DNA of 24,377 bases, taken from the IMG/VR virus record IMGVR_UViG_3300031994_000056. One strand, given 5' to 3'. The position numbers and the translations under genes were made by a program. Each line of letters starts with the position of its first letter. The stretch's first letter is position 1. Shown one piece after another: positions 1-23,849 of this stretch. The stretch is from a virus. Taxonomy: Duplodnaviria > Heunggongvirae > Uroviricota > Caudoviricetes. Below the pieces are notes generated by a model. The model did no database searches. It was not told where the DNA came from and saw only the letters and a list, made by a program, of their open reading frames with translations.

Positions 1-1
1 T

Positions 2-256
2 GTAACAACAGATGCAGTTAAAAATAGATTTAGTGAATTTGATAACATCTTTGTGCTTGGTTTAGCAAAAGATTTCTGTGTAAAATATTCACTAAAAGAT
101 TTAAATTTCTTTAATAATAAAATCAAATTATATTTAATTAATGACTTATCTAAATCGGTTTTTCCTAAAAAAGATAAAGAATTACTTAAAGAATTTGAAG
201 GACAAGATATAAAAATAATAAATAAAAAAGAAGCGGAGGAAATAATATGTCTATAA
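2..256 (+). CDS. pncA: Nicotinamidase/pyrazinamidase (isochorismatase family), C-terminal part; gene starts upstream of the window
   Basis: The frame is open from base 2 (VTTDAVKNRFSEFDNIFVLGLAKDFCVKYSLKD...). VLGLAKDFCVKYSLKD matches the PncA GxAxDxCV-xxT/S-xxD segment holding the catalytic Cys. It overlaps pncB by 10 nt. Confidence 0.85.
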   Translation, partial: VTTDAVKNRFSEFDNIFVLGLAKDFCVKYSLKDLNFFNNKIKLYLINDLSKSVFPKKDKELLKEFEGQDIKIINKKEAEEIICL

Positions 257-1425
257 TTAAAAGTTTATTAGATACAGATTTATATAAAATCAATATGATG
301 TGTGTATACTTCAATCGTTTTCCAAATAAAGTTGGAAGATTTGAATTTAAATGTCGTAATAAAGATGTAAGATTTACAACAACAATGCTTAAAAGAATTA
401 ATGATGAGTTAGATAATTTATGTACTTTACAATTTACAAATGAAGAAATAAATTGGTTATCTAATTTAGCATGGCTTAAAAATAAAATTGGCTTCTTATC
501 ATTTCTAAAACTATTTAAGTTTGATAGAAATATGATAACAGCAGAACTTCAAGAGGGTGGAAAACTTAAAGTTTCTGCTAAAGGTCCTATCTATATGATA
601 AGTTATTTCGAAACATTTGTTCTCTCTATTGTAAGTGAAGTATATTATGATGCAACTTATCCAGAAGAAGATTGCTCTTTAGCTATGAGCAAATTAGAAA
701 AGAAAATAGGTCAGATATTATACGCTGGCAGACCATTTAAGTTCAGTGAATTTGGTGCTAGAAGAAGATTTAGTTTTGATTGGCACGAGCAAGTAGTTAA
801 AACATTAGCTAAAAAAGTACCTTCATGGGAATTTGTAGGTACATCAGATATGTATTTAGCTATGAAATATAATCTCGTTCCTCAAGGAACTATGGCACAT
901 GAGTTCCTTTGTTTAGGTCAAGCACTGGATAATGTAACATTAGAAGCATCTCAAAGATACATGTTACAACAATGGGCAGATGAGTTCAGAGGAAATTTAG
1001 GTATAGCTTTAAGTGATAATCTTGGAATAGATAAATTTCTTAAAGACTTTGATTTATATTTCGCTAAACTATTCAATGGTATAAGACAAGATAGTGGAGA
1101 TCCAATAGAAGTTGGGAATAAAATAATTGAACACTATAAAAAACTTGGTATTAATCCTTTAACCAAAACAATAGTATTTAGTGATTGTTTAGATGTTAGA
1201 AAAGCACTAGATTTGAATGAAAAATTTTCTGATAAAATTAATGTAGCCTTTGGTATAGGAACCAATTTAGTTTGTGATATGGGGAGTTTCAGTCCATTAC
1301 AATGTGTAATGAAACTTGTAGAAGTAGATGGTAAACCTGTAGCAAAGATAAGTGATAGCGATGGTAAAGTAATGTGTGAAGATGAAGATTATATAAATTA
1401 TCTCAAGTCTGTAATTAAGAGATAA
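247..1425 (+). CDS. pncB: Nicotinate phosphoribosyltransferase
   Basis: Motifs SLLDTDLYK, EFGARRRFS, GTMAHE, RQDSGDP, VFSDCL, FGIGTNL and VMKL..KPVAKISDS are PncB-type, not NadV/NAMPT-type. GGAGG RBS at about 235-239. Confidence 0.95.
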   Translation: MSIIKSLLDTDLYKINMMCVYFNRFPNKVGRFEFKCRNKDVRFTTTMLKRINDELDNLCTLQFTNEEINWLSNLAWLKNKIGFLSFLKLFKFDRNMITAELQEGGKLKVSAKGPIYMISYFETFVLSIVSEVYYDATYPEEDCSLAMSKLEKKIGQILYAGRPFKFSEFGARRRFSFDWHEQVVKTLAKKVPSWEFVGTSDMYLAMKYNLVPQGTMAHEFLCLGQALDNVTLEASQRYMLQQWADEFRGNLGIALSDNLGIDKFLKDFDLYFAKLFNGIRQDSGDPIEVGNKIIEHYKKLGINPLTKTIVFSDCLDVRKALDLNEKFSDKINVAFGIGTNLVCDMGSFSPLQCVMKLVEVDGKPVAKISDSDGKVMCEDEDYINYLKSVIKR

Positions 1426-1480
1426 TATATTAGCCGTTAAGTCAGTTAAAGTATATTAAAATATATAATAGGAGAAACAA

Positions 1481-1987
1481 ATGAAATATATAATATGTGA
1501 TTTAGACGGAACATTATTTAATGTAGAACATAGACTTCCTTTATTACAGAACTGTAGAAATGAGGAAGACTATGATAAATTTCATGCAGCACATGTTAAC
1601 GATACTATTAATGAAAATATACTTGGGATACTTAATACTTATATGATGTTAAAGAATAGTGTAAAGTTTATATTTGTTACAGGACGCCATGAAAAATTTA
1701 GGGAGTCAACTGTTAAACAACTGGATGATTTAGTTTTTTCACCAGAACAATATACGCTTTATATGAAGTCTTCCTATGAAATGTATACACCAAATTTTGT
1801 AACAACAGTATTAGAAGACTTAGCAATTAAATGTGGTTTAGATAATATATTATTTGTTTTGGACGATAGACCAGCAACAGTTAAACTTTATAGAGAAGCA
1901 GGTCTTACTTGTTTACAAGTAAAAGATTCAACTGGCTTTATTGAAGATGTAAAGAAAGAGGAAATACAAAATGAAACTAAACTTTAA
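1481..1987 (+). CDS. HAD-superfamily phosphatase, T4 PNKP 3'-phosphatase-like, standalone
   Basis: DLDGT motif I, VTGR motif II, LDDRP motif IV and C-terminal GLTCLQV. GGAG RBS. Confidence 0.8.
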   Translation: MKYIICDLDGTLFNVEHRLPLLQNCRNEEDYDKFHAAHVNDTINENILGILNTYMMLKNSVKFIFVTGRHEKFRESTVKQLDDLVFSPEQYTLYMKSSYEMYTPNFVTTVLEDLAIKCGLDNILFVLDDRPATVKLYREAGLTCLQVKDSTGFIEDVKKEEIQNETKL

Positions 1988-2291
1988 CAAACAACAGACA
2001 CTTACTATTGAAGAACTATTATTCCATAAAACTTGTGATATGTGTCCAGAACAATATGACGTTTATAAAGGAACAAAACAAGTAGGATATGTTAGATTAA
2101 GATGGGGAAATTTAACTGTAGATTTTCCAAATGCTTTAGACAAACTTATTTATTCAAAAGACTTTGGTAACGGATATAAAGGTTGTTTTAACGATGATAA
2201 TGAAAGAATACTTTACCTTAAAAAGGTAGCAAAGTGTATAAAGGAGGAGCTAAAACATGTTAACAAACGAAAAAGTAATACAAAATATTAA
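1971..2291 (+). CDS. Hypothetical phage protein
   Basis: 106 aa with RBS, overlapping both neighbours. CPEQYDV..VGYVRLRWG resembles a recurrent phage hypothetical family; function unknown. Confidence 0.7.
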   Translation: MKLNFNKQQTLTIEELLFHKTCDMCPEQYDVYKGTKQVGYVRLRWGNLTVDFPNALDKLIYSKDFGNGYKGCFNDDNERILYLKKVAKCIKEELKHVNKRKSNTKY

Positions 2292-2940
2292 AGATTGGTT
2301 TAAACAATCCGGTTCAAAAACTGCAGTAATAAATATAAGTGGCGGAGCAGATAGTACTTATGTTGCTTGGTGTTTAGTAAAAGCGTTAGGAAAAGAAAAT
2401 GTATATGGTATTCTCCAACCTAATGGTGCACAAAAAGATATTAATGATGCTTTAAAAGTAGTTACAGAATTAGGAATTAGTTATACTGTATTGAATATAG
2501 GTGATATCTATGATAAATTTAAAGTATTATTAAGTAGTAATAATCCAGACTATATTAATATTGCACCTAGAATCCGTATGACTGTGGCTTATGCAATAGC
2601 TAATGGTAGGAACGCTAGAGTAATTGGTACAGGTAATGCATCAGAAAGATATGTAGGATACTTTACAAAATGGGGAGATGGCGCTTGTGACTATAATCCT
2701 ATAAAGGATATTCTTAAAACAGACTTAATTCAAATGGGATTAGAGTTAGGAATACCAAAAGAACTTATCTGTAAAACGCCTTCGGATGGTCTTACAGGAA
2801 AAACTGATGAAGAAAAATATGGCTTTTCTTATAAAGTTTTGGATGAGTATATTAAGACTGGTGTCTGTGAAGACTATAAAATAAAAGAAAAAATAGATAG
2901 GATGCATAAAAATAGCAGGCATAAGTTTGAGGAGATTTAA
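2257..2940 (+). CDS. nadE: NH3-dependent NAD+ synthetase (no glutaminase domain)
   Basis: SGGADS PP-loop, NIAPRIRM..YAIA, VIGTGNASE..VGYFTKWGDG, PSDGL.G.TDEE and SY..LD motifs. GGAGG RBS at about 2243-2247. Confidence 0.95.
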   Translation: MLTNEKVIQNIKDWFKQSGSKTAVINISGGADSTYVAWCLVKALGKENVYGILQPNGAQKDINDALKVVTELGISYTVLNIGDIYDKFKVLLSSNNPDYINIAPRIRMTVAYAIANGRNARVIGTGNASERYVGYFTKWGDGACDYNPIKDILKTDLIQMGLELGIPKELICKTPSDGLTGKTDEEKYGFSYKVLDEYIKTGVCEDYKIKEKIDRMHKNSRHKFEEI

Positions 2941-2941
2941 A

Positions 2942-3307
2942 ATGAAATGGTTATATAGACTAGAAAGTATATCTCCTGATAGTGGTTTATGGTACAACTC
3001 TAATAATAAATACGTGTGGGGTTGTAAAAACTGTCCCGGTGATGCCAAAAATTTACCTATGGGTTATGATGAAAGATACCATATAGACGGTAAAAATTGG
3101 TTCTCTTCTTGTTCAAATAAAGAAGATTTATTGCACTGGTATAGTAAAGAAGATGCAATATTCCTAATAGAACATGGATTTGTATTTACAAGATACTTAG
3201 CAGTTGATTATCATGAGTTTAAAAAAGAAACGGTATTCTTAAAAGAAACCGCAGTCAAAAGAGAAGTTATAGATTTCATTAGTTTATTTGAAGGAGATCT
3301 AAAATGA
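2942..3307 (+). CDS. Hypothetical protein with ADP-ribosyltransferase-like R-S-E motif pattern (tentative)
   Basis: Start reassigned to ATG 2942 (GAGGAG at 2929-2934). LYR (R6), FSSCS (S56-C-S58) and KETVF (E96). The ORF is well supported; the function is inference. Confidence 0.5.
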   Translation: MKWLYRLESISPDSGLWYNSNNKYVWGCKNCPGDAKNLPMGYDERYHIDGKNWFSSCSNKEDLLHWYSKEDAIFLIEHGFVFTRYLAVDYHEFKKETVFLKETAVKREVIDFISLFEGDLK

Positions 3308-3678
3308 AGAAAATATTGATATTAATACTTTGTTTAATAATATTACCTACTATTTGTTCTGCAGATTATACTGATATGTTTAAAAATTTTTTAGTAGTGC
3401 AATTTATAACAACTTTAACATCTGCAAGTACTGGACAGAAAGCATCAGATAAAGTTGATACAAAAAGACAATATGAGAAAAAGAAAAAAGAATTTCTAAC
3501 AAAGAAATTTCCTGGACCAAAAGGAGAATTAAAACGCTGCTATATTGGTGATAGTTATCCTGAAGTATATGTGTTAACGGTAGAAAGTCATGATTATCTT
3601 ATACTTAAAACTAATGTAGGCGTTAGTCTTGCACATTCAGAAAGTTGTCCTTGCAAACAAACGGAGGAAATAAAATGA
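3304..3678 (+). CDS. Exported or membrane hypothetical protein
   Basis: N-terminal MKK plus hydrophobic stretch and CSA|D signal-peptidase-I-like site. ATGA overlaps with both neighbours. Confidence 0.7.
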   Translation: MKKILILILCLIILPTICSADYTDMFKNFLVVQFITTLTSASTGQKASDKVDTKRQYEKKKKEFLTKKFPGPKGELKRCYIGDSYPEVYVLTVESHDYLILKTNVGVSLAHSESCPCKQTEEIK

Positions 3679-4703
3679 AAAAACTAGATGCTATCGTTTA
3701 TATAGGTAGGTTTCAGCCCTTCACTAATGCTCACTATAGGATAGTGAAACAGGCAATATCTAAAGCTAAAAAACTTATTATAGTTATTGGCTCAGCAAAA
3801 CGCTCTAGATCGTTCAGAAATCCGTTTACAGCGGAAGAAAGGAAAGATATGGTATCTTCTATTAAAGATTTAAAAAAGGCAAAAATAGAGTATATACTGC
3901 AGCCTAATAGCAATTATAACTTCAACTGGTGGGTTAAAGATGTACAGGAACAAGTAGGTAAGTTAACTAAACCTGGGGATAAAATAGGAATAATAGGACA
4001 TAAAAAAGACGCTTCTTCTTATTATTTGAACTATTTTCCACAGTGGGAGTTTATCGAACTATCAGAATTAGAAGAAGGTCTATCTGCTACAAGTGTTAGA
4101 AACTTATATTTTATGGATGCTACAGCTGTAATACCAGAGTTAGGCGTACCAAAAGACGTTAAAGATTGGTTGAATAATTGGAAACGTACTAATCGAACTA
4201 TATTTGAAACAATAAAAGATGAAAAGAAATTCATTGTAGAGTATAAAAAGAAATGGGAAAACGCTCCTTTTCAACCTATATTTGTAACTACGGATGCTAT
4301 GGTTTTATGTAAAGGACATATACTTCTTATTCGTAGAAGGTTTAATCCAGGTAAAGATTTATACGGTATGCCTGGAGGGTTTATAGATCCTACAGAATAT
4401 CTTAAAGATTGTGCTGTAAGAGAACTAAAAGAAGAAACAAAAATAGATGTAGACAAAGCTGTACTTAGAAATAGTATAGAATTGACCAAAGTATTTGATG
4501 ACCCATATAGAGAAGCACGTGGACGAGGTATAACACATTGCTTTCTATTTAATTTAAACTTAAAGGATTTACCAAAAGTTAAAGGCTCGGACGATGCTTA
4601 TGGTGCTCAATGGATACCATTAGGAAGTTTAGACGAGATGCAAGACCAATTCTTTGGTGACCATTATCAGATTATAAAGAATATGCTCGGACAAATAAAC
4701 TAA
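3675..4703 (+). CDS. nadM: Bifunctional NMN/NaMN adenylyltransferase and ADP-ribose pyrophosphatase (NadM-Nudix, NatV-like)
   Basis: Start reassigned to ATG 3675 (GGAGG RBS). IGRFQPFTNAH (H/T-x-G-H variant), IGSA...RNPFTAEER, IIGHKKDASSYYL, SATSVR, Nudix box GGFIDPTEYLKDCAVRELKEET and LPKVKGSDDA. Confidence 0.93.
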   Translation: MKKLDAIVYIGRFQPFTNAHYRIVKQAISKAKKLIIVIGSAKRSRSFRNPFTAEERKDMVSSIKDLKKAKIEYILQPNSNYNFNWWVKDVQEQVGKLTKPGDKIGIIGHKKDASSYYLNYFPQWEFIELSELEEGLSATSVRNLYFMDATAVIPELGVPKDVKDWLNNWKRTNRTIFETIKDEKKFIVEYKKKWENAPFQPIFVTTDAMVLCKGHILLIRRRFNPGKDLYGMPGGFIDPTEYLKDCAVRELKEETKIDVDKAVLRNSIELTKVFDDPYREARGRGITHCFLFNLNLKDLPKVKGSDDAYGAQWIPLGSLDEMQDQFFGDHYQIIKNMLGQIN

Positions 4704-4706
4704 CAC

Positions 4707-4735
4707 TTGACAAAACAGTAATAATGTAATATTAT
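4707..4735 (+). promoter_or_regulatory. Sigma70-type promoter upstream of nrdG
   Basis: TTGACA (4707-4712), 17-nt spacer, TATTAT (4730-4735), in an intergenic region. Confidence 0.75.
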
Positions 4736-4743
4736 AGTAGAGG

Positions 4744-4782
4744 ATCACCCTATAAGGGTAACATATTATAGGGTGATTTTTT
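4744..4782 (+). terminator. Intrinsic terminator-like hairpin
   Basis: 12-bp perfect stem ATCACCCTATAA (4744-4755) / TTATAGGGTGAT (4766-4777), 10-nt loop, T-run 4777-4782. Confidence 0.8.
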
Positions 4783-4811
4783 ATCGAAGAAAAAAGGAAA
4801 TTAATTGAAAA

Positions 4812-5309
4812 ATGAATATAAATTTACAAACAACATGGCTTGATTACCCAGACAATGAAAGTTTAGCAGTTATATTTTATACATACGGATGTATACATAA
4901 ATGTAAAAATTGTCATAATTTAGACCTACAAACTCCAGTAACATCCTATCCGAGCAGTATAATTGATGAAATCTTCACGTATTGTAAGCGAAATAATACA
5001 AATAAACTTGTATTATCAGGAGGTGATTGTCTGCTTAAAGAAGTAAATTTAAACTTAACAAATACCATTATAGATAAGTATAGTAAAGAATTAAATATCT
5101 GTATCTATACAGGATATGATATTGATTATGTAAAAACCAATGTTCATAAAGGATTTAAATTTGTTAAGTGTGGTAAGTATGATGAAACTAAGAAAATTGA
5201 ACCTAACAAAACTGACACTTATTTTCAATTAGCATCCACAAATCAATGTTTATATGACAGTAGTTACCAATTATTAAGTAATAATGGTAAATATTATTTT
5301 AACAAATAG
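4812..5309 (+). CDS. nrdG: Anaerobic RNR activating enzyme (radical SAM)
   Basis: GCIHKCKNCHN (CxxxCxxC), VLSGGD, IYTGY and KCGKY motifs; directly upstream of nrdD. Confidence 0.92.
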   Translation: MNINLQTTWLDYPDNESLAVIFYTYGCIHKCKNCHNLDLQTPVTSYPSSIIDEIFTYCKRNNTNKLVLSGGDCLLKEVNLNLTNTIIDKYSKELNICIYTGYDIDYVKTNVHKGFKFVKCGKYDETKKIEPNKTDTYFQLASTNQCLYDSSYQLLSNNGKYYFNK

Positions 5310-5318
5310 GAGAAAGAA

Positions 5319-7499
5319 ATGAGTAAAGAACAACAAGAAGAATTTAAAAAACCTATTAAGGTCGATTATCCAGAGTTTAATATTGAAGATCCAGTGGAAT
5401 ATCAGAAAGAACTAGATAAAATAACAGACCAATATTTCATCAACGCGTCTACAACAAGAACTCTTAAAAATATAAGAGAAGTATTAGTTAATAAATTAAG
5501 AAAAAAATATCATTTAACTAATGGTCAACTTAAAGCAGCAGCTGATTCTATACTTAAAATTCATGGATTACATGAAGATAACTTTGATGAAACATTACAA
5601 TTCTCAAAGTTTATAAGTGCAAAGAATAATAATGAATTAAGTATTGATGGTAATGCAAATAAAACTGAAACAGGTATTAAAGCATTAATGGTAGAGTCAA
5701 CACTTGCTTCAAGAAAGCTAATCGGTTTTGATCAACTTTACAGAGTTATGGTTGATTTATACGGCAGAGAAAAAGCAAAAGAATTATCTGGAAGTATGTA
5801 TGACTTATCTTTAGCTATTGCAGACTCCACTAATTTACTAATTCCATATTGCTATGCTGCAGACTTCTCAAAACTTGTTACATTAGGAAGAGAATTTGGA
5901 AAAGAACCTTCAGCTCCAGCAAAAAGATTAAGCACATACTGTAATATTGTTTGTGATACTGTAAGAGAATTAAGCTGTCATTTAGCAGGAGCAGTAGCAA
6001 TTTCTACATTCTTTTTAGACTCTGCTCACTTATTAATATATAAAGAAAGAATTCCTTTAGAAAAAATTAAAACAAATAAAAGAGTTAGATATTATATAAA
6101 CAATTGTTACCAACAAGTTATCTATTCATTAAACCATGCTTCAAGAGATGCAGTTGAATCTCCGTTTACAAATGTATCTTGCTTTGATGAATATAAACTT
6201 AGAACACTTGTTAGTGATATGGCTTGGTATTTTCCAATGAAAATAAAAGCTCTTATAGATAATAATATGGATGATGAAGTACTTGGTCATAAAATGACTG
6301 AAGATGAATGGAAAGATTTTGTTATAGACTATATAATGACATTACAAGAAATTTATATAGATATATTCAATGAAGGTAATCCTTTAAAAGGTGGATTACA
6401 GTTTGCTTTTCCAGTTACAACTATAAACTTTTCTGTTAAATATAACGACAAAGGTGAAAGAGAAATCCAAGAACCAAACAGATTATTAAATTATGCAACA
6501 AAAAAAGACATTAAAAGATATAATGTTTATGTTAGTGAAGGGACTAAAGTAGCGTCCTGTTGCAGATTGATAAATGATACTGAAATGTCAGAACTTGCTT
6601 CGTCTGTTAATTCATTTGGAGGTTCTTCTATATCATTAGGTTCAGATAGAGTTGTTACTATTGACCTCTTAAGAATTGCTTTCGAATGTAAAGACTATGA
6701 AGATTATAAAAGAATATTGAAGTTAAGAATAGACCATTGTGCAAAGATATTAAAAGCACATAGAGTACTTATAATGAAATTAAAATCATTAGGTACACAA
6801 CCTTTTATATCAAACGGTTGGATTAACTTTGGTAGAATGTTCGGTACATATGGTTGTATCGGATACTTTGAAGCTGATAAAATATTAAAGAAAAGATTTG
6901 ATAAAGACTTTGATTATATGAAAGACTTTATGATTTATCTTAATCAAGAAGTCGATAATAAAAAGAAAGAAGTAGATGAAAACGGAAATAAATTATACAA
7001 TTTCCCAATGAACATTGAGCAGATTCCAGGTGAATCGATGGCTATTAAGATAGCTAAAGTGGATAAAATTCTTTATCCAAATGAAGAAATACCTACAGTT
7101 TTAGCTAACCAGTTTGTTTCATTATGGGAAGATAAAACAATCTATGAAAAAATGGATAGAGATGGGGAACTTAATAGACTATTAACTGGTGGTGGAATTT
7201 GTCATATACAATGCTCTGAAAAACTATCATCACATCAAGCAAAGAAACTTATTAAGTATGCCGCCAAGAGTGGTTGTGATCACTTTGCTATTAATGGTGT
7301 ATATATGAAATGTAACGATTGTAATACTGTTGTAGAAAGTAGTGGTGATACATGTCCTAAATGTGGTGGTAAACATGTAGAACATTATACAAGAGTAATT
7401 GGTTTCTTTAGTAAAGTAGAAAATTGGATACCAGAAAGACAAACAGCAGATTTTCCTAATAGAAAATTTGTTGACGTAAAAACAATTGACTCTAAATAA
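5319..7499 (+). CDS. nrdD: Class III (anaerobic) ribonucleoside-triphosphate reductase
   Basis: SPFTN, FPVTT, finger loop SCCRL, EQIPGES, GGGICHI, Zn ribbon CNDC..CPKCG and glycyl-radical loop YTRVIGFF. Confidence 0.95.
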   Translation: MSKEQQEEFKKPIKVDYPEFNIEDPVEYQKELDKITDQYFINASTTRTLKNIREVLVNKLRKKYHLTNGQLKAAADSILKIHGLHEDNFDETLQFSKFISAKNNNELSIDGNANKTETGIKALMVESTLASRKLIGFDQLYRVMVDLYGREKAKELSGSMYDLSLAIADSTNLLIPYCYAADFSKLVTLGREFGKEPSAPAKRLSTYCNIVCDTVRELSCHLAGAVAISTFFLDSAHLLIYKERIPLEKIKTNKRVRYYINNCYQQVIYSLNHASRDAVESPFTNVSCFDEYKLRTLVSDMAWYFPMKIKALIDNNMDDEVLGHKMTEDEWKDFVIDYIMTLQEIYIDIFNEGNPLKGGLQFAFPVTTINFSVKYNDKGEREIQEPNRLLNYATKKDIKRYNVYVSEGTKVASCCRLINDTEMSELASSVNSFGGSSISLGSDRVVTIDLLRIAFECKDYEDYKRILKLRIDHCAKILKAHRVLIMKLKSLGTQPFISNGWINFGRMFGTYGCIGYFEADKILKKRFDKDFDYMKDFMIYLNQEVDNKKKEVDENGNKLYNFPMNIEQIPGESMAIKIAKVDKILYPNEEIPTVLANQFVSLWEDKTIYEKMDRDGELNRLLTGGGICHIQCSEKLSSHQAKKLIKYAAKSGCDHFAINGVYMKCNDCNTVVESSGDTCPKCGGKHVEHYTRVIGFFSKVENWIPERQTADFPNRKFVDVKTIDSK

Positions 7500-7514
7500 A
7501 AAATTTAGTATAAT
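7486..7514 (+). promoter_or_regulatory. Near-consensus sigma70 promoter overlapping the nrdD 3' end
   Basis: TTGACT (7486-7491), 17-nt spacer, TATAAT (7509-7514). Predicted start about 7521-7522, at the 5' end of the tRNA-like RNA. Confidence 0.85.
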
Positions 7515-7521
7515 ATAAAAA

Positions 7522-7659
7522 GATCTTTGTATAGCTCAACGGGAGAGCGGCTTGCTTTGCAAGCGACTGTTACAGATTTATGAACTTATCACTCATAAAT
7601 TGATGGTAACATAGACTTGATATGTCGAGGTGGTGGTTCAAATCCACTTACAAAGGTCA
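7522..7659 (+). ncRNA. tRNA-shaped RNA with a 62-nt structured insert at the variable-arm position
   Basis: Acceptor CTTTGTA (7525-7531) / TACAAAG (7649-7655); TA then D arm GCTC-AACGGGA-GAGC (7534-7548); hairpin GCTTGC-TTT-GCAAGC (7550-7564); insert 7565-7626; GAGGT; T arm GGTGG-TTCAAAT-CCACT (7632-7648). No encoded CCA. Confidence 0.8.
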
Positions 7660-7678
7660 CATTTTTTAGGGGAAAAAG

Positions 7679-7867
7679 ATGAGTAAAAAAATGAAATCCT
7701 ATTGGTTTTTATATGAAGAAATAAAAAAATGCACGGATTGTCCTTGTAATTTTTTAGATGGGCATCAAAGTTACTGTAGGCTTTTAAAAAAATTTAATGT
7801 AAACAAAAAGAAAGATTGCCCTTTAGAAATCGTAGAAGAATGTAAATTTGTAGGAGGTACTGACTAA
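7679..7867 (+). CDS. Small Cys-rich hypothetical protein
   Basis: 62 aa with CTDCPC, CRLL, CPL and a further Cys. AGGGG RBS; TAATG overlap with thioredoxin. Confidence 0.65.
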   Translation: MSKKMKSYWFLYEEIKKCTDCPCNFLDGHQSYCRLLKKFNVNKKKDCPLEIVEECKFVGGTD

Positions 7868-8142
7868 TGCTAAATATTATCAAAATTTATACATCTTTTT
7901 GTGTACCATGTAAAATGTTAATCCCTGTATTAGAAAAATTACAGGCAGAATTTACAGGCAAAATTTCAATTCAAGATGTTAATGTAGATGAAGGTATACC
8001 GGAATTATATGCAGATATGAATATAATGAGCACACCTACATTACTATTTATAAAAGATGGAGTGCTATTAAAAAAGATTGTAGGTCTTAGATCTTATGAG
8101 TCTTTAAAAGAATTAATAACTAAATTACTTGAGGAAAAATAA
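7867..8142 (+). CDS. trxA: Thioredoxin
   Basis: CVPC active site in (T)SFCVPCKML, VNVDE, cis-Pro motif STPTLLFIKDG and VG; 91 aa; GGAGG RBS. Confidence 0.9.
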   Translation: MLNIIKIYTSFCVPCKMLIPVLEKLQAEFTGKISIQDVNVDEGIPELYADMNIMSTPTLLFIKDGVLLKKIVGLRSYESLKELITKLLEEK

Positions 8143-8143
8143 T

Positions 8144-8290
8144 ATGGTTGAATGTCCTGTGTGTGGAAGTTTAAAAGTTAAAGTAACTGGACAGTTTTAT
8201 AAATGTACAAATTGTAATTACACTTGGAAGAAAGGTTGCCCAACTTGTGGGAGGAATTTAAATGATAATACAATTAAAAGATGTAGATGA
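8144..8290 (+). CDS. 48-aa zinc-ribbon protein (absent from the ORF track)
   Basis: My translation: MVECPVCGSLKVKVTGQFYKCTNCNYTWKKGCPTCGRNLNDNTIKRCR*. Three CxxC plus one Cys; GAGG RBS at 8131-8134; fills the gap between trxA and 8262. Confidence 0.7.
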   Translation: MVECPVCGSLKVKVTGQFYKCTNCNYTWKKGCPTCGRNLNDNTIKRCR

Positions 8291-8627
8291 TTGGTCTGTT
8301 CAAGACTTTATAAGATATATAAAATCAAAATGTAGTTTAAAAGGTATAGATTATACAGCAAAAACAAAACAATCTTTTATGATATTAGGTAGAACTTTTA
8401 AACTTTTAAAGTTAAATAATAAAAGTAAAAGTTGGTTAAAAAATAAAATTGATATATTTTTAAATAGTGAAACAACGGAAAGTGTTACAAACCTTTTATT
8501 TATAAATTACTTAACAAGAACATTTCCTAGACAATTACAGGATAATACTATAAAAAACTTACCTAAAGTAAATAAAATATCTGAAGATGTAAAACGAAAA
8601 TTAGTTATGCTACGGAGTTGTTTATGA
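8262..8627 (+). CDS. Hypothetical basic protein
   Basis: 121 aa with GGAGG RBS at 8250-8254; no motif recognised. Confidence 0.7.
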   Translation: MIIQLKDVDDWSVQDFIRYIKSKCSLKGIDYTAKTKQSFMILGRTFKLLKLNNKSKSWLKNKIDIFLNSETTESVTNLLFINYLTRTFPRQLQDNTIKNLPKVNKISEDVKRKLVMLRSCL

Positions 8628-8833
8628 AATATAAATTACCAAAATATAAATTTATAATCCCTTGTGAGATATATGACGGTCATAATTTTCATCCTGGTGA
8701 TGTAGTTAAAGTAATATATGTAAATGTAAGTGCAGATAATTGTAGAGATGTATTTGTAATGTTTAAAGATAAGGAATATCATATTCCAGTTGACGCATTT
8801 TTATTATGTACTAAAAAGATAAAAGTTATTTAA
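8624..8833 (+). CDS. Small hypothetical protein
   Basis: Start reassigned to ATG 8624 (GGAG at 8614-8617; ATGA overlap). Last gene before the convergent terminator. Confidence 0.65.
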   Translation: MKYKLPKYKFIIPCEIYDGHNFHPGDVVKVIYVNVSADNCRDVFVMFKDKEYHIPVDAFLLCTKKIKVI

Positions 8834-8837
8834 GAAT

Positions 8838-8874
8838 AAAAAAAACCATCTTCCTAATATTAGGAAGATGGTTT
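8838..8874. terminator. Terminator at the convergence of the two gene blocks
   Basis: Perfect 32-bp palindrome AAACCATCTTCCTAAT-ATTAGGAAGATGGTTT (8843-8874). The A-run 8838-8845 gives a U8 tail on the minus strand. Confidence 0.9.
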
Positions 8875-8883
8875 AATTAATTA

Positions 8884-9237
8884 TTACTTTTCAGTATTAT
8901 CAATATCATCAACAGCTTTTTTAGCATCATCAATAGCTTTTTTAGCATCCCATTTAGCATCGTCTACAGATTTTCTTACATCCCAATAAAGTTTAAATGC
9001 TTCTTCTTCGGAAAGATTAAACTCATTAATAAGTTTTGGAACAATTGTTCTTTCATTTTCTCCAGCTTTTAATCCTTCTTTTATAGTATCAAACTCTTTT
9101 TCATAATTTTTAAACTCATCTTTTGAAATATCAAGAGCTTTCAATACTATACAAGCTTCTCTTATAGCCTTTGAATCATTTCTGTCTAATGCGTCATTTA
9201 ATTGTGCTTCTACAATTTTTTGTGCTTCTCTTTTCAT
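8884..9237 (-). CDS. Hypothetical helical protein with C-terminal heptad repeat
   Basis: 117 aa, GAGG RBS, ATGA overlap with the holin-like gene; ends DAKWDAKKAIDDAKKAVDD. Confidence 0.75.
   Translation of the reverse strand: MKREAQKIVEAQLNDALDRNDSKAIREACIVLKALDISKDEFKNYEKEFDTIKEGLKAGENERTIVPKLINEFNLSEEEAFKLYWDVRKSVDDAKWDAKKAIDDAKKAVDDIDNTEK
8905..8946. repeat. 21-bp tandem repeat, 2 copies, in frame
   Basis: ATCATCAACAGCTTTTTTAGC / ATCATCAATAGCTTTTTTAGC, one mismatch. Confidence 0.85.
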
Positions 9238-18944: not shown

Positions 18945-21900
18945 TTAAATAATTGTTATTTCTATAATAGGGCATCCTGCATTTACTATTAAATTCCCTA
19001 ATTCTTCAGTATATTTACTATTAGCTGTAAATGTTCCATGTATGTCACCACTAAAATCACCTACTAAAATACAGCCGTCTGTATGTTGCACACTAGATCC
19101 TGTATGTATTCTTATATCTGTAAAAAACGGAACATTTAAAAGTTCTGGATAATTTCCTCCAAATTTAGGTGACCAAGACACACGTGTTAAATATATGCCA
19201 TTTGGTATAGCGGTTTCATTATCAATTTTTATATTTGTTAAATCTTGTCCTCTATAAGTATCCTCTAATGTATAACAAAAAGGTTTCTCTGTAACAGTAT
19301 TTATATATAACTTGCCGATAGTTCTTGAACTATCTAAAAGATATCTATGAAGAATAATTTTTAATGGTCTAGCTGAAGAATTATACTTATCTAATACATA
19401 TTTATTAGGATCTAAATTAACATCTGGTAACTGTAATTTTTGTATTTTATATGGATACCAATCTTTCGAATTTAATTTCATATAAGAATTATCTGCATTA
19501 TAAAGATTTACTTGTATTTGTTCTTTTAGTTCAACACTCTTAATAAATTCTGACTTTTCAGAGTTTAAAGTTATATTTTTTGTATAAGAACTACTTCTAT
19601 CATTTGAAACAACATTAATACCTCCTGCATTTGTTACTGTAACAGCACCGCCATCAAGTCTACAAACTAAAGCACTGCTATTCTTATATTCTACATTATA
19701 AGTTCCGTTATCATTTATATAAGTTTTATCTTGTATATATAAATATCCTTTTTCAAAATCATCTATTTTATAAGCCACATCAACAACATTATTTTTAAAC
19801 TTATCTATAATTTGTTTTTGTGTATCATTATTAATCGTAATATCTTTTTGTAAGTTTATTATTAAAGATGTATTGTAAACACATGGTACTTTCCTAAACA
19901 CTCCTTCTCCTGATTTAATTAAACTTCCCCAAGATACTATATTATTTATTTTTAAATTTAATTCTTTATCAAGTCTTTCATTGCAAAAAAGAAACGAGCC
20001 AAATTGATTACCATTTATCGACTCAATTAAGTTATATATAGTTACATTATATAAATTTTCAAAATCACTATTATTCCAAACATACAGTACTGATGGATCA
20101 AAAACAGCTTTAAAATCATTTACTGTTGATACTCTACCGTCTGTATATTTATCAATCCCTACATATAAACCACCTTTATTATAAATTTGTTGAATAGTAG
20201 GAATTTTATCTTCTGGAATTTCATTATATCCTACACGAATTACACAAGGTAAAAATTTATTATCACACTTTCCTGTATTAATAAATTGATTTATTTCACT
20301 TTCAGTTGTTATATAATGTTTTTCTAATATTGTAACATCGTAACCATATAAATCTTTTACTTTTTCATAATCAAATTTTATTACTGGATAATAATATAGT
20401 AAACCTGTTTTTGAATATAATGTTACATCTAAAATTAATTTTGTAAACTCACCTAATATTTCACCCATTGAATTTCTTAAAGACATATCTTTCAGTTTTA
20501 CTTGATTATTTTTTCCAATATTAGGCGTTATAATAGTTTCATTAAATTCAATTAAATCTGTTTTATAATTTATAGGGCTTACACCAGCAATATAAGCCCC
20601 ACGGTTATACAATGATTGTACTAATGGAAATTGTTCACTATCTTTATATACATAAGCTGGTACACCTACATTAATTGTTTCATTATGATATAAATCTTTA
20701 AAAAGGTTAAATAATTTTTTATACCATGTAAAATATATTCCTGGAGTTGAATTAGAAAATAATTTTTTAAATTTATTAATTAATATATTTCCTTCTTTCT
20801 CATTTACATATTCTAAAAGTATTGAAACGTCTTTACCAGCATAATCATAGGCTAATTCGAATTCATAATAAGCAAATTTACTATTACAAAATTTATTATA
20901 TTTATTAACCATATTAGTTAATCTATCATAATGATCAAAATATTGATACTCAGTATTTTTTTTCTGCTCAATATACCAAACTTTATATGACTGTGTATAC
21001 CTATCATTTTTTAAATATCTATTATATGCTTGTAAAATCTCATTCATTATAATCTGAAAATCTTTTAAGTCACCTGCTGCAAATCCAGAAAGTATATTAG
21101 GTACTATAGAGTCTGTAACAAAAAACTTATTATTTACAGTAGCATACGGTGCTGATAAATTTGAAATATTAATATCTGTAATATAATCTAAAGAATTGTA
21201 TTTACCTCCAAAAGTAGCATCTTTATTTAAATATTCTAAAAATTTTTGTTCATTTGCTTTAGTACGTATTTCTCTAGAATAGTAAGCAGTAGCATTTAAG
21301 TCGTGAGTTTTTGAACTATTTGTTCGCATCAACAGATCTGTAAACCATATAGCATTTATTAATTGTTGTTTAGGTGTAAATGCACTAGATAAAATATCTT
21401 CATAACTTTTAAAATCTTTAACTCTAATATTTGTCGGCGCCATTGTTTTATATAAAGATCTTGTTTCATTTGTGCTAACATAGCTATTTCTATTTATATA
21501 TGTATCAAATTTATTTTTATTTGGTGCTTCAAAACTAGCCCAATAATATCTATTATTTGCACATAAATTATTTACTTTATCTTCTATACGTTTTTGTTGT
21601 TTTTCTGTAAGCATATTAGGAGTAATACTTGACTGGTACATACTTAACTCTGGAAGTCTTTTAAAATTTAAAATATATGCTCCTGATTTTTGTATATCAG
21701 CTAAATTATTACGTCCTCTCATATTATCTATTAACTCAGCAACACGCATATATTTAAATGTTAATCTATGTATATCTACATTTCCAGGAGAAATAGTTGT
21801 AGAAATTGTAGTTAAATATCCTACAAATCCTGTAGATAATATATTACCAGTAATACTTTTATTAATAGGAAAATAATACAATCTACCTAAAATATAATCC

Positions 21901-23849
21901 TGTGTTAATGGAACTGTTAACTCAAAAGTTCTTGTATTACTATTTGATTTTGTAACATCTAATGCAGAATAAACAGCTGCATCAATTTCAGATTGTACAC
22001 TGGGAGAGTTTTTAGGTGAGTCTATTCTAAAACCATATTTTAATAATGCAGGAATATCTTGATAATATCCTCCACAAAATTCATTCTGAACACCTATAGC
22101 TGGAATGGACCATTGATAATCAGATCTACTTTTTAAAGTGGAATCATCTATAGACTGAGTCCATTCAATAAAATCATTTTCATCAATAACATCATCATTA
22201 ATCCAAACATTATAACGTGGAGGTCTTAAAATTAAAATTCCATTTCTATCTTCAAAGATTTCTAAAAAAGTGTTATTTGCTAACGTTTGTAAAATAGATA
22301 AAGGTGTTGTCATGTTAGACCAAAATAAATCAAAATGACTTCTAAGCATTAAAAGATATGCTTGTAATTTTTCTTGATTAACATTATTTTCTACCTTTGC
22401 TAAAACAATATGTGTTGACTTTCCTACCTCACGTATAGTAGATGTTGTTACTGCTAAATGATAAAGAATAATTAAAGGTTTAGCATATTGATAAGGTAAC
22501 TTTTTTAATTTAGCTGGGTCACTTATTAAACGTAATACATAACTAGTTTTATCTTCTTCTACAGGAGACACAGCCAAAACATCACTTAGTAATTTAGTAA
22601 ATAAATCAAAAGCATTTAACCCATCAAAGAATGTTGAAAATACATTAGTAACTGCAGCACTTGAAGTTTTCTGTTGTTTATCAGTACCTGCAATAAAGTC
22701 TATAACACTGTTAAACTGAGGTGCTATTGCATTACTACTAATGGTAGGATTTAATGAAAGTACTTTTGAAATACCTTCACAAGATACATTTAATAATGAA
22801 ACACCACCAAATCTTTGAGATAAACTTACTTTTGTAACAAAGCCTATAAATTGTGTATTTCTGTTTATAGTATTATTTATATTCTGTTCTGACGATATAG
22901 TCTTAGATATTAATTTATTTTGATTTAAATTTACAATCTCAATTATATCATTTGCTTCAATATTAATATTATGCTTTAACAATATATCTTGTCTTAAATT
23001 AAAGTTTGTCATATTAGACAAACCTTCCAAAGTAGTTGTGATTACTCCTACAGAATCTACTGAATTTTCTTTATTGTCATTACTAAAATCACCACGAGAA
23101 GTATTTAAAGCAATAAAATTATCATTTGTATATTTTGTACGTTCTGTAATAACTTCATCAATAACACCACAAGAACTTAGGTCGGTTAGTTCTATAACAT
23201 GTACGTATTTAGATTTTTCAAGTTTACCTTCTTGTATTGCTTGTATATCTTCTATAACAGGATCAAATAATTTATTTAATAAATTTGTACTTAAATCTAA
23301 AGCTTTCTTAATGTAATTATCATAAGCTTCTTTTTTCTCCATAGTATTAAGCCAGTTAATCTTTATTTCATTATTCTCAACTGACATCATACTATTTTCA
23401 TAATCACGTTGTAACATCTGTAAAGCATAGTTCTGTGCTAAAGCTTTTTGTACTAAGTCATCTTCACCTGAAATTGTAGCACGGTTATACTTTAATAAAA
23501 CATCTGTATTCTCTTTACCTAACGGTTTATACTCAAGAGTTTGTGACTCACCTATTTGTTTACTTTGGTTTGTTTGACTTGTACTCAAATTTGATTTTTT
23601 ATTGTAATAATCATTAACATATTCATCATACTTACTTTTTATTTTTTCTGCATCACTACTTTTTGATGACAATGCTTTTATAATATTATCACTAGGTACA
23701 CCTAATGTATATAAATCTGTTACAAAACTTTCAAATAAAAATTGATTTGCAGAATTGTTATTCATTAAATCTGCTATACTATTTTGTAAAGCAGAATAAT
23801 TATACTTATATAAATATATTTTATAATTATTTTTAAATAAACTTGTCAT
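18945..23849 (-). CDS. Large baseplate hub protein with a C-terminal DUF5675-like (L,D-transpeptidase-like) domain
   Basis: 1634 aa. Hub-like segments FIGFVTKV, EIFEDRNGILILRPPRY, LLKYGFR and LGRLY..GYLTTIS. C-terminus TIGKLYI..CYTLED..KIDNETAIPNGIY..SPKF..L.NVP.F..IRIHTG..HTDGCILVG. Confidence 0.75.
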   Translation of the reverse strand: MTSLFKNNYKIYLYKYNYSALQNSIADLMNNNSANQFLFESFVTDLYTLGVPSDNIIKALSSKSSDAEKIKSKYDEYVNDYYNKKSNLSTSQTNQSKQIGESQTLEYKPLGKENTDVLLKYNRATISGEDDLVQKALAQNYALQMLQRDYENSMMSVENNEIKINWLNTMEKKEAYDNYIKKALDLSTNLLNKLFDPVIEDIQAIQEGKLEKSKYVHVIELTDLSSCGVIDEVITERTKYTNDNFIALNTSRGDFSNDNKENSVDSVGVITTTLEGLSNMTNFNLRQDILLKHNINIEANDIIEIVNLNQNKLISKTISSEQNINNTINRNTQFIGFVTKVSLSQRFGGVSLLNVSCEGISKVLSLNPTISSNAIAPQFNSVIDFIAGTDKQQKTSSAAVTNVFSTFFDGLNAFDLFTKLLSDVLAVSPVEEDKTSYVLRLISDPAKLKKLPYQYAKPLIILYHLAVTTSTIREVGKSTHIVLAKVENNVNQEKLQAYLLMLRSHFDLFWSNMTTPLSILQTLANNTFLEIFEDRNGILILRPPRYNVWINDDVIDENDFIEWTQSIDDSTLKSRSDYQWSIPAIGVQNEFCGGYYQDIPALLKYGFRIDSPKNSPSVQSEIDAAVYSALDVTKSNSNTRTFELTVPLTQDYILGRLYYFPINKSITGNILSTGFVGYLTTISTTISPGNVDIHRLTFKYMRVAELIDNMRGRNNLADIQKSGAYILNFKRLPELSMYQSSITPNMLTEKQQKRIEDKVNNLCANNRYYWASFEAPNKNKFDTYINRNSYVSTNETRSLYKTMAPTNIRVKDFKSYEDILSSAFTPKQQLINAIWFTDLLMRTNSSKTHDLNATAYYSREIRTKANEQKFLEYLNKDATFGGKYNSLDYITDINISNLSAPYATVNNKFFVTDSIVPNILSGFAAGDLKDFQIIMNEILQAYNRYLKNDRYTQSYKVWYIEQKKNTEYQYFDHYDRLTNMVNKYNKFCNSKFAYYEFELAYDYAGKDVSILLEYVNEKEGNILINKFKKLFSNSTPGIYFTWYKKLFNLFKDLYHNETINVGVPAYVYKDSEQFPLVQSLYNRGAYIAGVSPINYKTDLIEFNETIITPNIGKNNQVKLKDMSLRNSMGEILGEFTKLILDVTLYSKTGLLYYYPVIKFDYEKVKDLYGYDVTILEKHYITTESEINQFINTGKCDNKFLPCVIRVGYNEIPEDKIPTIQQIYNKGGLYVGIDKYTDGRVSTVNDFKAVFDPSVLYVWNNSDFENLYNVTIYNLIESINGNQFGSFLFCNERLDKELNLKINNIVSWGSLIKSGEGVFRKVPCVYNTSLIINLQKDITINNDTQKQIIDKFKNNVVDVAYKIDDFEKGYLYIQDKTYINDNGTYNVEYKNSSALVCRLDGGAVTVTNAGGINVVSNDRSSSYTKNITLNSEKSEFIKSVELKEQIQVNLYNADNSYMKLNSKDWYPYKIQKLQLPDVNLDPNKYVLDKYNSSARPLKIILHRYLLDSSRTIGKLYINTVTEKPFCYTLEDTYRGQDLTNIKIDNETAIPNGIYLTRVSWSPKFGGNYPELLNVPFFTDIRIHTGSSVQHTDGCILVGDFSGDIHGTFTANSKYTEELGNLIVNAGCPIIEITII

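Follow-up and report, generated by a model that had tools for sequence, protein, structure and literature searches.

Positions 2-4703 of the stretch of viral DNA analyzed here (24,377 nucleotides in full, hereafter the window) hold an array of eight open reading frames (ORFs), all on the plus strand and overlapping or at most 55 nt apart. Four of them encode predicted enzymes of nicotinamide adenine dinucleotide (NAD+) salvage: the nicotinamidase PncA, the nicotinate phosphoribosyltransferase PncB, the NAD synthetase NadE, and NadM-Nudix, in which an adenylyltransferase for nicotinamide mononucleotide (NMN) or nicotinic acid mononucleotide (NaMN) is joined to a Nudix ADP-ribose pyrophosphatase. 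The window covers bases 52,155-76,531 of a single 300,445-bp IMG/VR virus record (IMGVR_UViG_3300031994_000056) with a CheckV completeness of 98%. Judging by homology, the cluster very probably encodes a functional pathway from nicotinamide (Nam) to NAD+. The initial annotation had presented it as a complete, near-gapless four-gene operon; all four genes do exist, closely packed on one strand, but four other ORFs are interleaved with them, and the window contains just the C-terminal part of PncA, whose gene starts upstream.

Enzyme assignments and predicted chemistry

PncA matches the Pfam Isochorismatase family (1.8e-11; 44.9 bits against a cut-off of 27), and its seven PDB sequence matches at E<=0.001 all fall among nicotinamidases and their close homologues, the top one being the Pyrococcus horikoshii enzyme 1ILW (2.7e-34). 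In the alignment with 1ILW, the stretches VVD.Q, i.K. and ..CV match, and rDWHPxNH and HCVQ are conserved. We take the first three of these stretches of 1ILW to hold its D10/K94/C133 triad, and likewise assume that its D-H-H zinc ligands fall in matching stretches; an Asp-His-His metal site was taken as what separates nicotinamidases from other isochorismatase-like hydrolases. The catalytic cysteine of PncA (DFCV) falls within the window. PncB exceeds two curated cut-offs (482 against 379 bits for NF003704, and 420 against 270 for TIGR01514), and its top PDB match is Pseudomonas aeruginosa PncB2 (1YIR, 5e-91), with the GTMAHE motif present and aligned. H218 of this motif is invariant in an 18-sequence alignment; the histidine of GT-x-AHE is, we presume, the site of ATP-driven autophosphorylation.

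NadE scores well above the TIGR00552 cut-off (187 against 63.65 bits) and below that of NF010587 (201 against 255). Its N-type ATP-pyrophosphatase P-loop reads SGGADS, it has no glutaminase domain, and its PDB matches include P. horikoshii 2E18 (1.7e-47, 165 bits), Campylobacter jejuni 3P52 (1.6e-31) and Francisella tularensis 3FIU (2.2e-31, 112 bits). NadM-Nudix is homologous over its full length to solved enzymes from Synechocystis (2QJO, 4e-78, query residues 17-349) and Francisella (2QJT, 1.4e-65), and its Nudix stretch, G-x5-E-x7-RELKEE, is identical in form to those of both. Taken together, the hidden Markov model matches, PDB homologues and motifs uphold the enzyme assignments of the initial annotation.

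Several observations weigh against these assignments. The activities of all four proteins are ones that we infer from their sequences. PncA remains under the cut-off of the NCBIfam nicotinamidase model NF008623 (84 against 174 bits), which was built on the longer, enterobacterial form of the enzyme, and NadM-Nudix remains under the NF003786 equivalog cut-off (365.5 against 397 bits). The motifs had also been described as intact-looking, which holds for the motif residues of PncA, PncB and NadE but less clearly for NadM, where the (H/T)xGH nucleotidyltransferase motif reads GRFQPF-T-N-A-H, with alanine replacing the glycine of H-L-G-H in Synechocystis and of the H-x-G-H form common to Synechocystis and Francisella. 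Human NMNAT likewise lacks the glycine of the nucleotidyltransferase motif.

The route from Nam through nicotinate and NaMN to NAD+ that had been proposed for the cluster is in keeping with these assignments. PncA would hydrolyze nicotinamide to nicotinate, from which PncB would form NaMN with host phosphoribosyl pyrophosphate (PRPP) and ATP; the NadM domain would then, in the likelier order of steps, convert NaMN to nicotinic acid adenine dinucleotide (NaAD), and NadE would make NAD+ from NaAD, ammonia and ATP. The Nudix domain would turn free ADP-ribose into AMP and ribose-5-phosphate. The net outcome would be an NAD+ pool of the infected cell that is kept up or raised from NAD+ breakdown products. 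In effect, this would be NAD+ reconstitution pathway 2 (NARP2) with its single NAMPT step swapped for PncA, PncB and NadE.

The last steps could also run in the order known from F. tularensis, in which NadD is likewise replaced by NadM-Nudix, NadM adenylates NMN, and the NadE homologue is an NMN synthetase (PMC3376133). In that case, the phage NadE would act as an NMN synthetase, turning NaMN into NMN, and an NMN-preferring NadM would then make NAD+, with no NaAD being formed. Both F. tularensis proteins (2QJT and 3FIU) are clearly homologous to those of the phage, and NadM-Nudix enzymes can favor NMN over NaMN, which counts against the classical scheme and makes step order and flux uncertain (PMC3376133). 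The phage NadE is nearer, however, to P. horikoshii 2E18 than to the F. tularensis protein (165 against 112 bits), and the sole archaeal NadE to have been assayed, that of Methanocaldococcus jannaschii, proved to be an NAD synthetase that does not double as an NMN synthetase; NadM of archaea and of Acinetobacter, moreover, takes NaMN and pairs with ordinary NAD synthetases (PMC3376133). Because of this nearness to archaeal NadE, we lean modestly toward the classical order through NaAD and hold the Francisella-type order to be the less probable, though a serious, alternative.

Across the whole phage genome, PncB is the single NAPRTase-family match (and scores as PncB), leaving neither a Nampt nor a Namat, while NadM-Nudix is the one CTP_transf_like (NMNAT) gene; searches of the genome for Pribosyltran_N (Prs/Adps) and NMN_transporter (PnuC) gave no match. 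The phage therefore carries none of NARP1, NARP2 or NARP3, and the earlier statement that its gene set matches neither of the first two stands. A PRPP synthetase, for which the initial annotation had suggested looking upstream, is encoded neither there nor elsewhere in the genome, so that PRPP must be supplied by the host. An NAD-dependent ligase, Macro, SIR2 and nucleoside deoxyribosyltransferase were also sought in the genome, and none was found.

Genomic setting and bacterial counterparts

GC content is uniform across the window (0.23-0.32). Genes lie on the plus strand across bases 1-8,800 and on the minus strand from about 8,900 on, the minus-strand block including a baseplate wedge subunit (phrog_6, 1e-37) and a tail-fiber protein. 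As these structural genes share a contig with the NAD genes, we assign the cluster to a jumbo myovirus and not to a host chromosome; the size and completeness of the record agree with this, and the earlier description of the genes as phage-encoded is thus borne out. By its baseplate wedge protein, the closest cultured relative is Bacillus phage G, at 25% identity. The same block contains a 1634-aa ORF (window 18945-23849, minus strand) of which the C-terminal 130 residues alone match phrog_1501, a family of unassigned function; its 870-aa and 426-aa neighbors have no PHROG match.

The eight-gene array (Table 1) recurs in L007, a 180-kb contig whose PncB is 84% identical, between the same helicase, glycosyltransferase and NrdG/NrdD flanks, which shows the arrangement to be stable in this group of phages. 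On the 5' side of pncA lie a UvsW-like helicase, a GT2 glycosyltransferase and genes without assigned function. Directly 5' of pncA are a 573-aa double GT2 glycosyltransferase with TPR repeats (L004:7217-8938, L004 being the locus of the window) and then a 227-aa ORF (L004:8935-9618), both of which are present in L007.

Table 1. Predicted features of the NAD array and its 3' flank, in window coordinates.
Feature	Position	Strand	Matches and remarks
PncA (nicotinamidase, 189 aa), C-terminal 84 residues	2-256	+	Whole gene L004:9687-10256, start 314 nt upstream of the window
PncB, nicotinate phosphoribosyltransferase, 392 aa	247-1425	+	NAPRTase_N and NAPRTase
HAD phosphatase, PNKP type, stand-alone, 168 aa	1481-1987	+	Pfam HAD_PNKP 1.1e-15; phrog_415/505 "polynucleotide kinase"
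106-aa ORF	1971-2291	+	phrog_21607, 2e-20; no Pfam match; atlas neighbors are viral hypothetical proteins
NadE, single-domain NH3-dependent NAD synthetase, 227 aa	2257-2940	+	NAD_synthase 4e-56
121-aa protein, phage T4 Y00F family (PF26820)	2942-3307	+	phrog_23161; atlas score 0.96 to PF26820 clusters
124-aa ORF	3304-3678	+	Hydrophobic, signal-peptide-like N-terminus; no family at or above threshold
NadM-Nudix, NMN/NaMN adenylyltransferase and Nudix ADP-ribose pyrophosphatase, 352 aa	3645-4703	+	CTP_transf_like and NUDIX; phrog_395 2.4e-77
Sigma-70-like promoter match, 11/12	4707-4735	+	In the 108-nt gap before nrdG; from a consensus scan alone
NrdG (anaerobic ribonucleotide reductase)	4812-5309	+	Fer4_12/Radical_SAM; phrog_626 / phrog_25611 for the NrdG-NrdD pair
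NrdD (anaerobic ribonucleotide reductase)	5319-7499	+	NRDD; phrog_626 / phrog_25611 for the NrdG-NrdD pair

Of the interleaved ORFs, the HAD phosphatase sits between pncB and nadE, and its DLDGT motif aligns with the Pnkp1 phosphatase domain 4XRP; among the PncB loci examined, this gene and the 106-aa and 124-aa ORFs were seen in the close relative L007 only. Extended NARP1 operons carry a Macro-type phosphatase for ADP-ribose (ADPR)-1''-phosphate (bioRxiv 10.64898/2026.01.28.702374), of which we do not claim the HAD protein to be the counterpart, given its different fold family and its confinement to the closest relatives. The promoter match ahead of nrdG possibly marks the end of the NAD unit; across positions 1-5400, promoter-like sites are not enriched (30, against 31.0 in shuffles) and no terminator-like site was found. 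A 33-nt repeat (window 1449-1481) was considered as a cluster-specific regulatory element and rejected, being an AT-rich leader with a strong AGGAG ribosome-binding site that is common to two other genes.

In its gene order, the cluster follows an ordinary bacterial operon. Its route, "salvage I" with the two universal final steps, is the textbook one in bacteria, and pncA-pncB-nadE operons are on record (PMC2330246). Of the 80 bacterial loci nearest by PncB, 17 have PncA, PncB, NadE and NadM-Nudix on one strand in exactly the phage order; these loci come from Acidovorax, Comamonas, Variovorax, Undibacterium, Methylomonas and others, and 13 of them also have a further, NrtR-like Nudix ORF next to the cluster, which in 11 cases is encoded on the opposite strand. 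As functions, order and strand all agree, the phage cluster is best seen as a captured housekeeping operon. The two nevertheless differ in several respects: at about 570-950 aa from stop to stop, the bacterial NadE ORFs have a length that fits a two-domain, glutamine-dependent enzyme, against 227 aa for the ammonia-type NadE of the phage; no NrtR-like regulator turned up among the phage ORFs that were scanned (related NrtR regulons are described in PMC2330246); and the phage PncB is just 43-48% identical to those of these bacteria.

Nor does PncB have a close cellular relative. The nearest in a collection of genomes from 185,579 species is 48% identical, and PncBs of Helicobacteraceae metagenome-assembled genomes (MAGs) in a larger protein database go up to 53-55%. 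A quickly built maximum-likelihood tree of 157 rows, for which branch support was by SH-aLRT only and the bacterial rows were the 80 nearest loci, places the window PncB in a virus-only clade of eight (SH-aLRT 96); in some of its members (L018, L019 and L058), PncA, NadE and a fused NadM-Nudix are likewise close by. The viral label changes 7 times on this tree, against 52.7 times with shuffled labels; since the bacterial sample consists of the nearest loci, this shows clustering and not a single origin. The low cellular identity, the short ammonia-type NadE and the virus-only clade together indicate that capture of the operon is not recent.

An identical gene order in bacteria would also be expected if the cluster were chromosomal DNA of the host, either mis-binned or next to a prophage. 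A small number of "viral" PncB rows (L035 and L073) do nest inside bacterial clades, and 7 of the 33 other PncB-carrying IMG/VR records that we searched whole (19 of them at least 90% complete) are classed as proviruses, yet 10 of the same 33 have direct terminal repeats. At the present locus, the cluster is surrounded on one contig by the UvsW-like helicase, NrdD/G, baseplate and tail-fiber genes, and the near-complete 300-kb record, the even GC content, the 48% and 53-55% limits on cellular PncB identity and the virus-only clade all argue against a chromosomal source, which we consider exceedingly improbable. We conclude that the cluster is probably a phage-borne copy of the ordinary bacterial deamidating salvage operon, long resident in large-phage lineages, that would restore NAD+.

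Recurrence in viruses and the embedded Y00F-family gene

A scan of IMG/VR with the single PncB protein gave no match, so that a profile was needed for the census; the profile search found 424 IMG/VR stretches encoding a PncB relative, which makes the nicotinate route a widespread one among large phages that are uncultured. We surveyed the neighborhoods of 85 loci (the best 80 from IMG/VR and five others) within 6 kb of PncB. PncA was present in 61 and NadE in 59, with both in 49, and 11 had a NadM-type NMNAT and Nudix in addition; as the NMNAT profile was built from NadM, it probably misses NadD. Among the 33 other records searched whole, NadE was found in 29 (17 of the 19 that are at least 90% complete), and CTP_transf_like and Isochorismatase in 24 each (15 of the 19 in either case). 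A second NAPRTase-family gene (NAMPT or Namat) was found in none of the 33, and Prs/Adps in one.

This pattern, with Nampt and Namat missing and Adps rare, is suggestive, although not proof, of the nicotinate route being an alternative to NARP1 and NARP2. It is weakened by the fact that the 33 records come from related, non-independent phages, and that a count of zero is only modestly surprising when NAMPT occurs in about 10% of jumbo phages (71 of 668; Li et al. 2024, PMC11662467).

In one case, the route is compressed into fewer genes. L061 (IMGVR_UViG_3300021387_000046), a complete 189.6-kb phage with terminal repeats, encodes it in three: PncA, a 523-aa fusion of PncB with a Y00F homologue (L061:9986-11557) and, directly 3' of the latter, a 415-aa NMNAT::NadE fusion (L061:11563-12810; CTP_transf_like at residues 5-143 and NadE at 182-414). 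Such compression is good evidence that the four activities would work as a unit in phages. Farther 3' in L061 lie a nucleoside-deoxyribosyltransferase-like gene and Xan_ur_permease, a possible base transporter.

Cultured phages rarely have PncB (13 of 50,697 records), while NadM-Nudix homologues occur in 454 of the same records, KVP40-like vibriophages included. A nucleotide search with the cluster against cultured phages returned short PncB matches to huge uncultured phages and nothing else. The cultured jumbo phage Phosso of Sinorhizobium (PV764938) resembles the present phage in having homologues of all the activities within ~6 kb, in the order NadE-PncB-Nudix-NMNAT-PncA, with small hypothetical genes interrupting the cluster; it differs in this order, in having Nudix and NMNAT as separate genes, in the nucleoside deoxyribosyltransferase-like gene that follows the cluster, and in a PncB that is ~31% identical.

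Further relatives show the genes in other settings. Agrobacterium phage Atu_ph07 has a partial NAD gene set nearby. The phage-like contig L008 (ENA ERZ724098 NODE_716, 2447-9164), which carries genes for an RNA ligase, a NADAR-domain protein and an rIIB-like protein and has a PncB that is 54% identical, shows a different layout of the same pathway: PncB is accompanied by a separate CN_hydrolase, possibly a split glutaminase, together with an NAD synthase of 465 aa and a gene with a CYTH domain. PncA, NadE and PncB homologues also lie within 8 kb of one another (LR756501.1, 423160-431429; tblastn) in the 735-kb huge phage of Al-Shayeb et al., for which Li et al. 2024 (PMC11662467) name nadD alone.

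The 121-aa ORF between nadE and nadM belongs to a widespread family. It has 298 homologues, mostly 60-93% identical, and the majority of the family is encoded far away from NAD genes; 2 of the 33 other PncB-phage records have one. In some loci, however, a Y00F homologue is linked to PncB: it is fused to the PncB C-terminus in L061, lies directly downstream of PncB in L030 (L030:11175-11558) and L031, and lies directly upstream of it in L070 (L070:9595-9978). This distribution thus points to a general phage protein that NAD clusters have recruited on several occasions.

Across the family alignment, R6, E8 and E96 are invariant and S-S-C-S nearly so, and no ExE pair is conserved. In an AlphaFold2 model of the protein (mean predicted local distance difference test score 85), R6 lies on strand 1, S55-S56-C57-S58 at or just after strand 2, and E96 just before a strand. 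Fold matches to this model are weak (VIA Z <=4.0; Foldseek probability <=0.25 against the PDB) but fall almost entirely in the ADP-ribosyltransferase (ART) superfamily, among them cholera, LT and pertussis toxins, DarT, ParT, RES toxins, PARPs and DUF952. A co-fold of PncB with the protein scored 0.00, which says nothing about binding either way. We accordingly regard an ART-like or NAD+-binding function as a lead and not a finding, and see somewhat less than an even chance for it.

If the protein were a small ADP-ribosyltransferase or NAD+-binder, the salvage genes might serve as its supply line, recycling its nicotinamide and providing its NAD+. The position of the gene, kept in L007, the fusion to PncB in a complete phage genome, its place beside PncB in three more loci, and the sequence in which its conserved residues (R, then S-S-C-S, then E) fall on predicted strands, matching an R-S-E ART core, are all consistent with this idea, as is the bias of the fold matches toward the ART superfamily. 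The weak scores of those matches and a length of ~120 aa, far below that of known ARTs, speak against it, as does the location of most Y00F members away from NAD genes. Most PncB clusters, moreover, have no Y00F-like gene, so that a supply line, which we think unlikely here, cannot explain the pathway in general.

Known NAD+ pathways and a possible role in counter-defense

Bacterial immunity often ends in the depletion of NAD+ (Thoeris, DSR, SIR2-HerA, SEFIR and others), and three phage routes for rebuilding NAD+ have been shown by experiment. The cluster had been put forward as a candidate third such route, a label that no longer applies now that NARP3 (PnuC + NadR) has been published (2026; PMC13464706). 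NARP3 also rebuilds NAD+ with phage-encoded enzymes, but from imported nicotinamide riboside, whereas this phage has no PnuC and its sole CTP_transf_like gene is NadM-Nudix. NARP1 (Adps + Namat) differs from the present route in proceeding through ADP-ribose pyrophosphate (ADPR-PP), and neither a Prs-like Adps nor a second NAPRTase-family gene is found here. The nearest in kind is NARP2 (Nampt + bifunctional Nmnat/Nudix; Vibrio phage KVP40; Osterman et al. 2024), which likewise has nicotinamide as its starting point, consumes PRPP and ATP, and closes with an enzyme of the NadM-Nudix type. NARP2 makes NMN from Nam in one amidated step, however, where this genome, which has no Nampt, would need three enzymes and deamidated intermediates, and NARP2 has been tested against Thoeris and DSR2, whereas the present route is predicted from its genes.

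The initial annotation knew of no earlier account of this route as a phage counter-defense and would have taken one as refuting its proposal; such literature largely exists. Complete salvage or Preiss-Handler pathways occur in 174 of 668 gut jumbo phages, and the same study reports a pncB-nadD-nadE cluster (e.g., in Kuafu_71), mentions phage pncA, and puts forward a counter-defense role against the depletion of NAD+, as a proposal that it expressly makes without experimental work (Li et al., Microbiome 2024, PMC11662467). With 300,445 bp, PncB, an adenylyltransferase, NadE and PncA, the present virus is an "NAD-jumbo phage" as there understood (>200 kb, every step of one NAD+ pathway), and like the others it has clustered genes for the full route from niacin to NAD+. 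It is unlike them in having a fused NadM-Nudix instead of NadD, PncA inside the array and four extra interleaved ORFs, one of them ART-like, and in belonging to a lineage without a close cultured relative. No publication was found that tests the nicotinate route against a defense system, probably because of its rarity in cultured phages, nor one that uses "NARP4" for a phage pathway.

An anti-defense role for the cluster is plausible. NARP2 overcomes Thoeris and DSR2 (bioRxiv 10.1101/2024.02.11.579819), and because it does, a pathway from Nam to NAD+ should also oppose NADase-based immunity; the NMNAT/Nudix enzyme is of the same family as in NARP2, and the Nampt step alone is replaced. Moreover, the predicted substrates of PncA and Nudix are exactly the two products of NAD+ glycohydrolysis. 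The further suggestion that the deamidated intermediates might be poor NADase substrates found no evidence in its favor.

Other considerations weigh against a role in defense. The locus holds no defense-specific pointer: its neighbors NrdG and NrdD belong to nucleotide metabolism, and the module is a plain housekeeping operon within a nucleotide-metabolism block. The route is dearer in ATP than NARP2 and reliant on host PRPP. Removal of nicotinamide relieves product inhibition of sirtuin-type enzymes, which could hurt the phage. Host assignment, finally, failed by each of the means used (tRNA genes, of which the window has none; kinship to cultured phages; and the nearest cellular PncBs), so that there is no defense repertoire to which the cluster could be related. 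The nearest PncBs in the genome collection are scattered over Brachyspira, other Spirochaetota and Burkholderiales; Brachyspira, whose GC content is similarly low, is as a host a guess only.

The genes could instead serve general auxiliary metabolism, raising NAD(H) for redox reactions, nucleotide metabolism and the long jumbo-phage cycle, with any anti-defense effect as a by-product. The setting beside NrdG/NrdD (with thioredoxin near in a relative) and the straight copying of a housekeeping operon suit this explanation well; NARP2, too, raises NAD+ in the absence of any defense system (bioRxiv 10.1101/2024.02.11.579819), and complementarity of phage and host NAD pathways has been described by Li et al. 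(PMC11662467). It accounts less readily for PncA and a Nudix ADP-ribose hydrolase, which would act on products of NAD+ glycohydrolysis and not on external niacin, for a genome without the NAD-dependent ligase, Macro or SIR2 that would raise a special demand for NAD+, or for the lack of NAMPT in all 33 other PncB-carrying records, which suggests that the two routes are alternatives for one job. We judge general metabolism alone to be a somewhat improbable account, which overlaps with the best explanation, a long-resident salvage operon that would restore NAD+, rather than excluding it.

For the claim that the cluster measurably rescues its phage from at least one NAD+-depleting system, we see the chances as evenly balanced. 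A bolder proposal, which we can offer only tentatively, is that it represents a genuine fourth phage NAD+ reconstitution pathway that replaces NARP1/NARP2 in many big uncultured phages against NADase defenses, with a minimal ART-like Y00F accessory recruited to PncB in some lineages. To the description published in 2024 the locus adds little, save the apparent exclusivity toward NAMPT/Namat and Adps and the embedded ART-like gene. If counter-defense by this route works, however, the NARP concept would reach a large fraction of gut and environmental jumbo phages, and phages would be shown capable of adopting an entire housekeeping operon of the host to that end.

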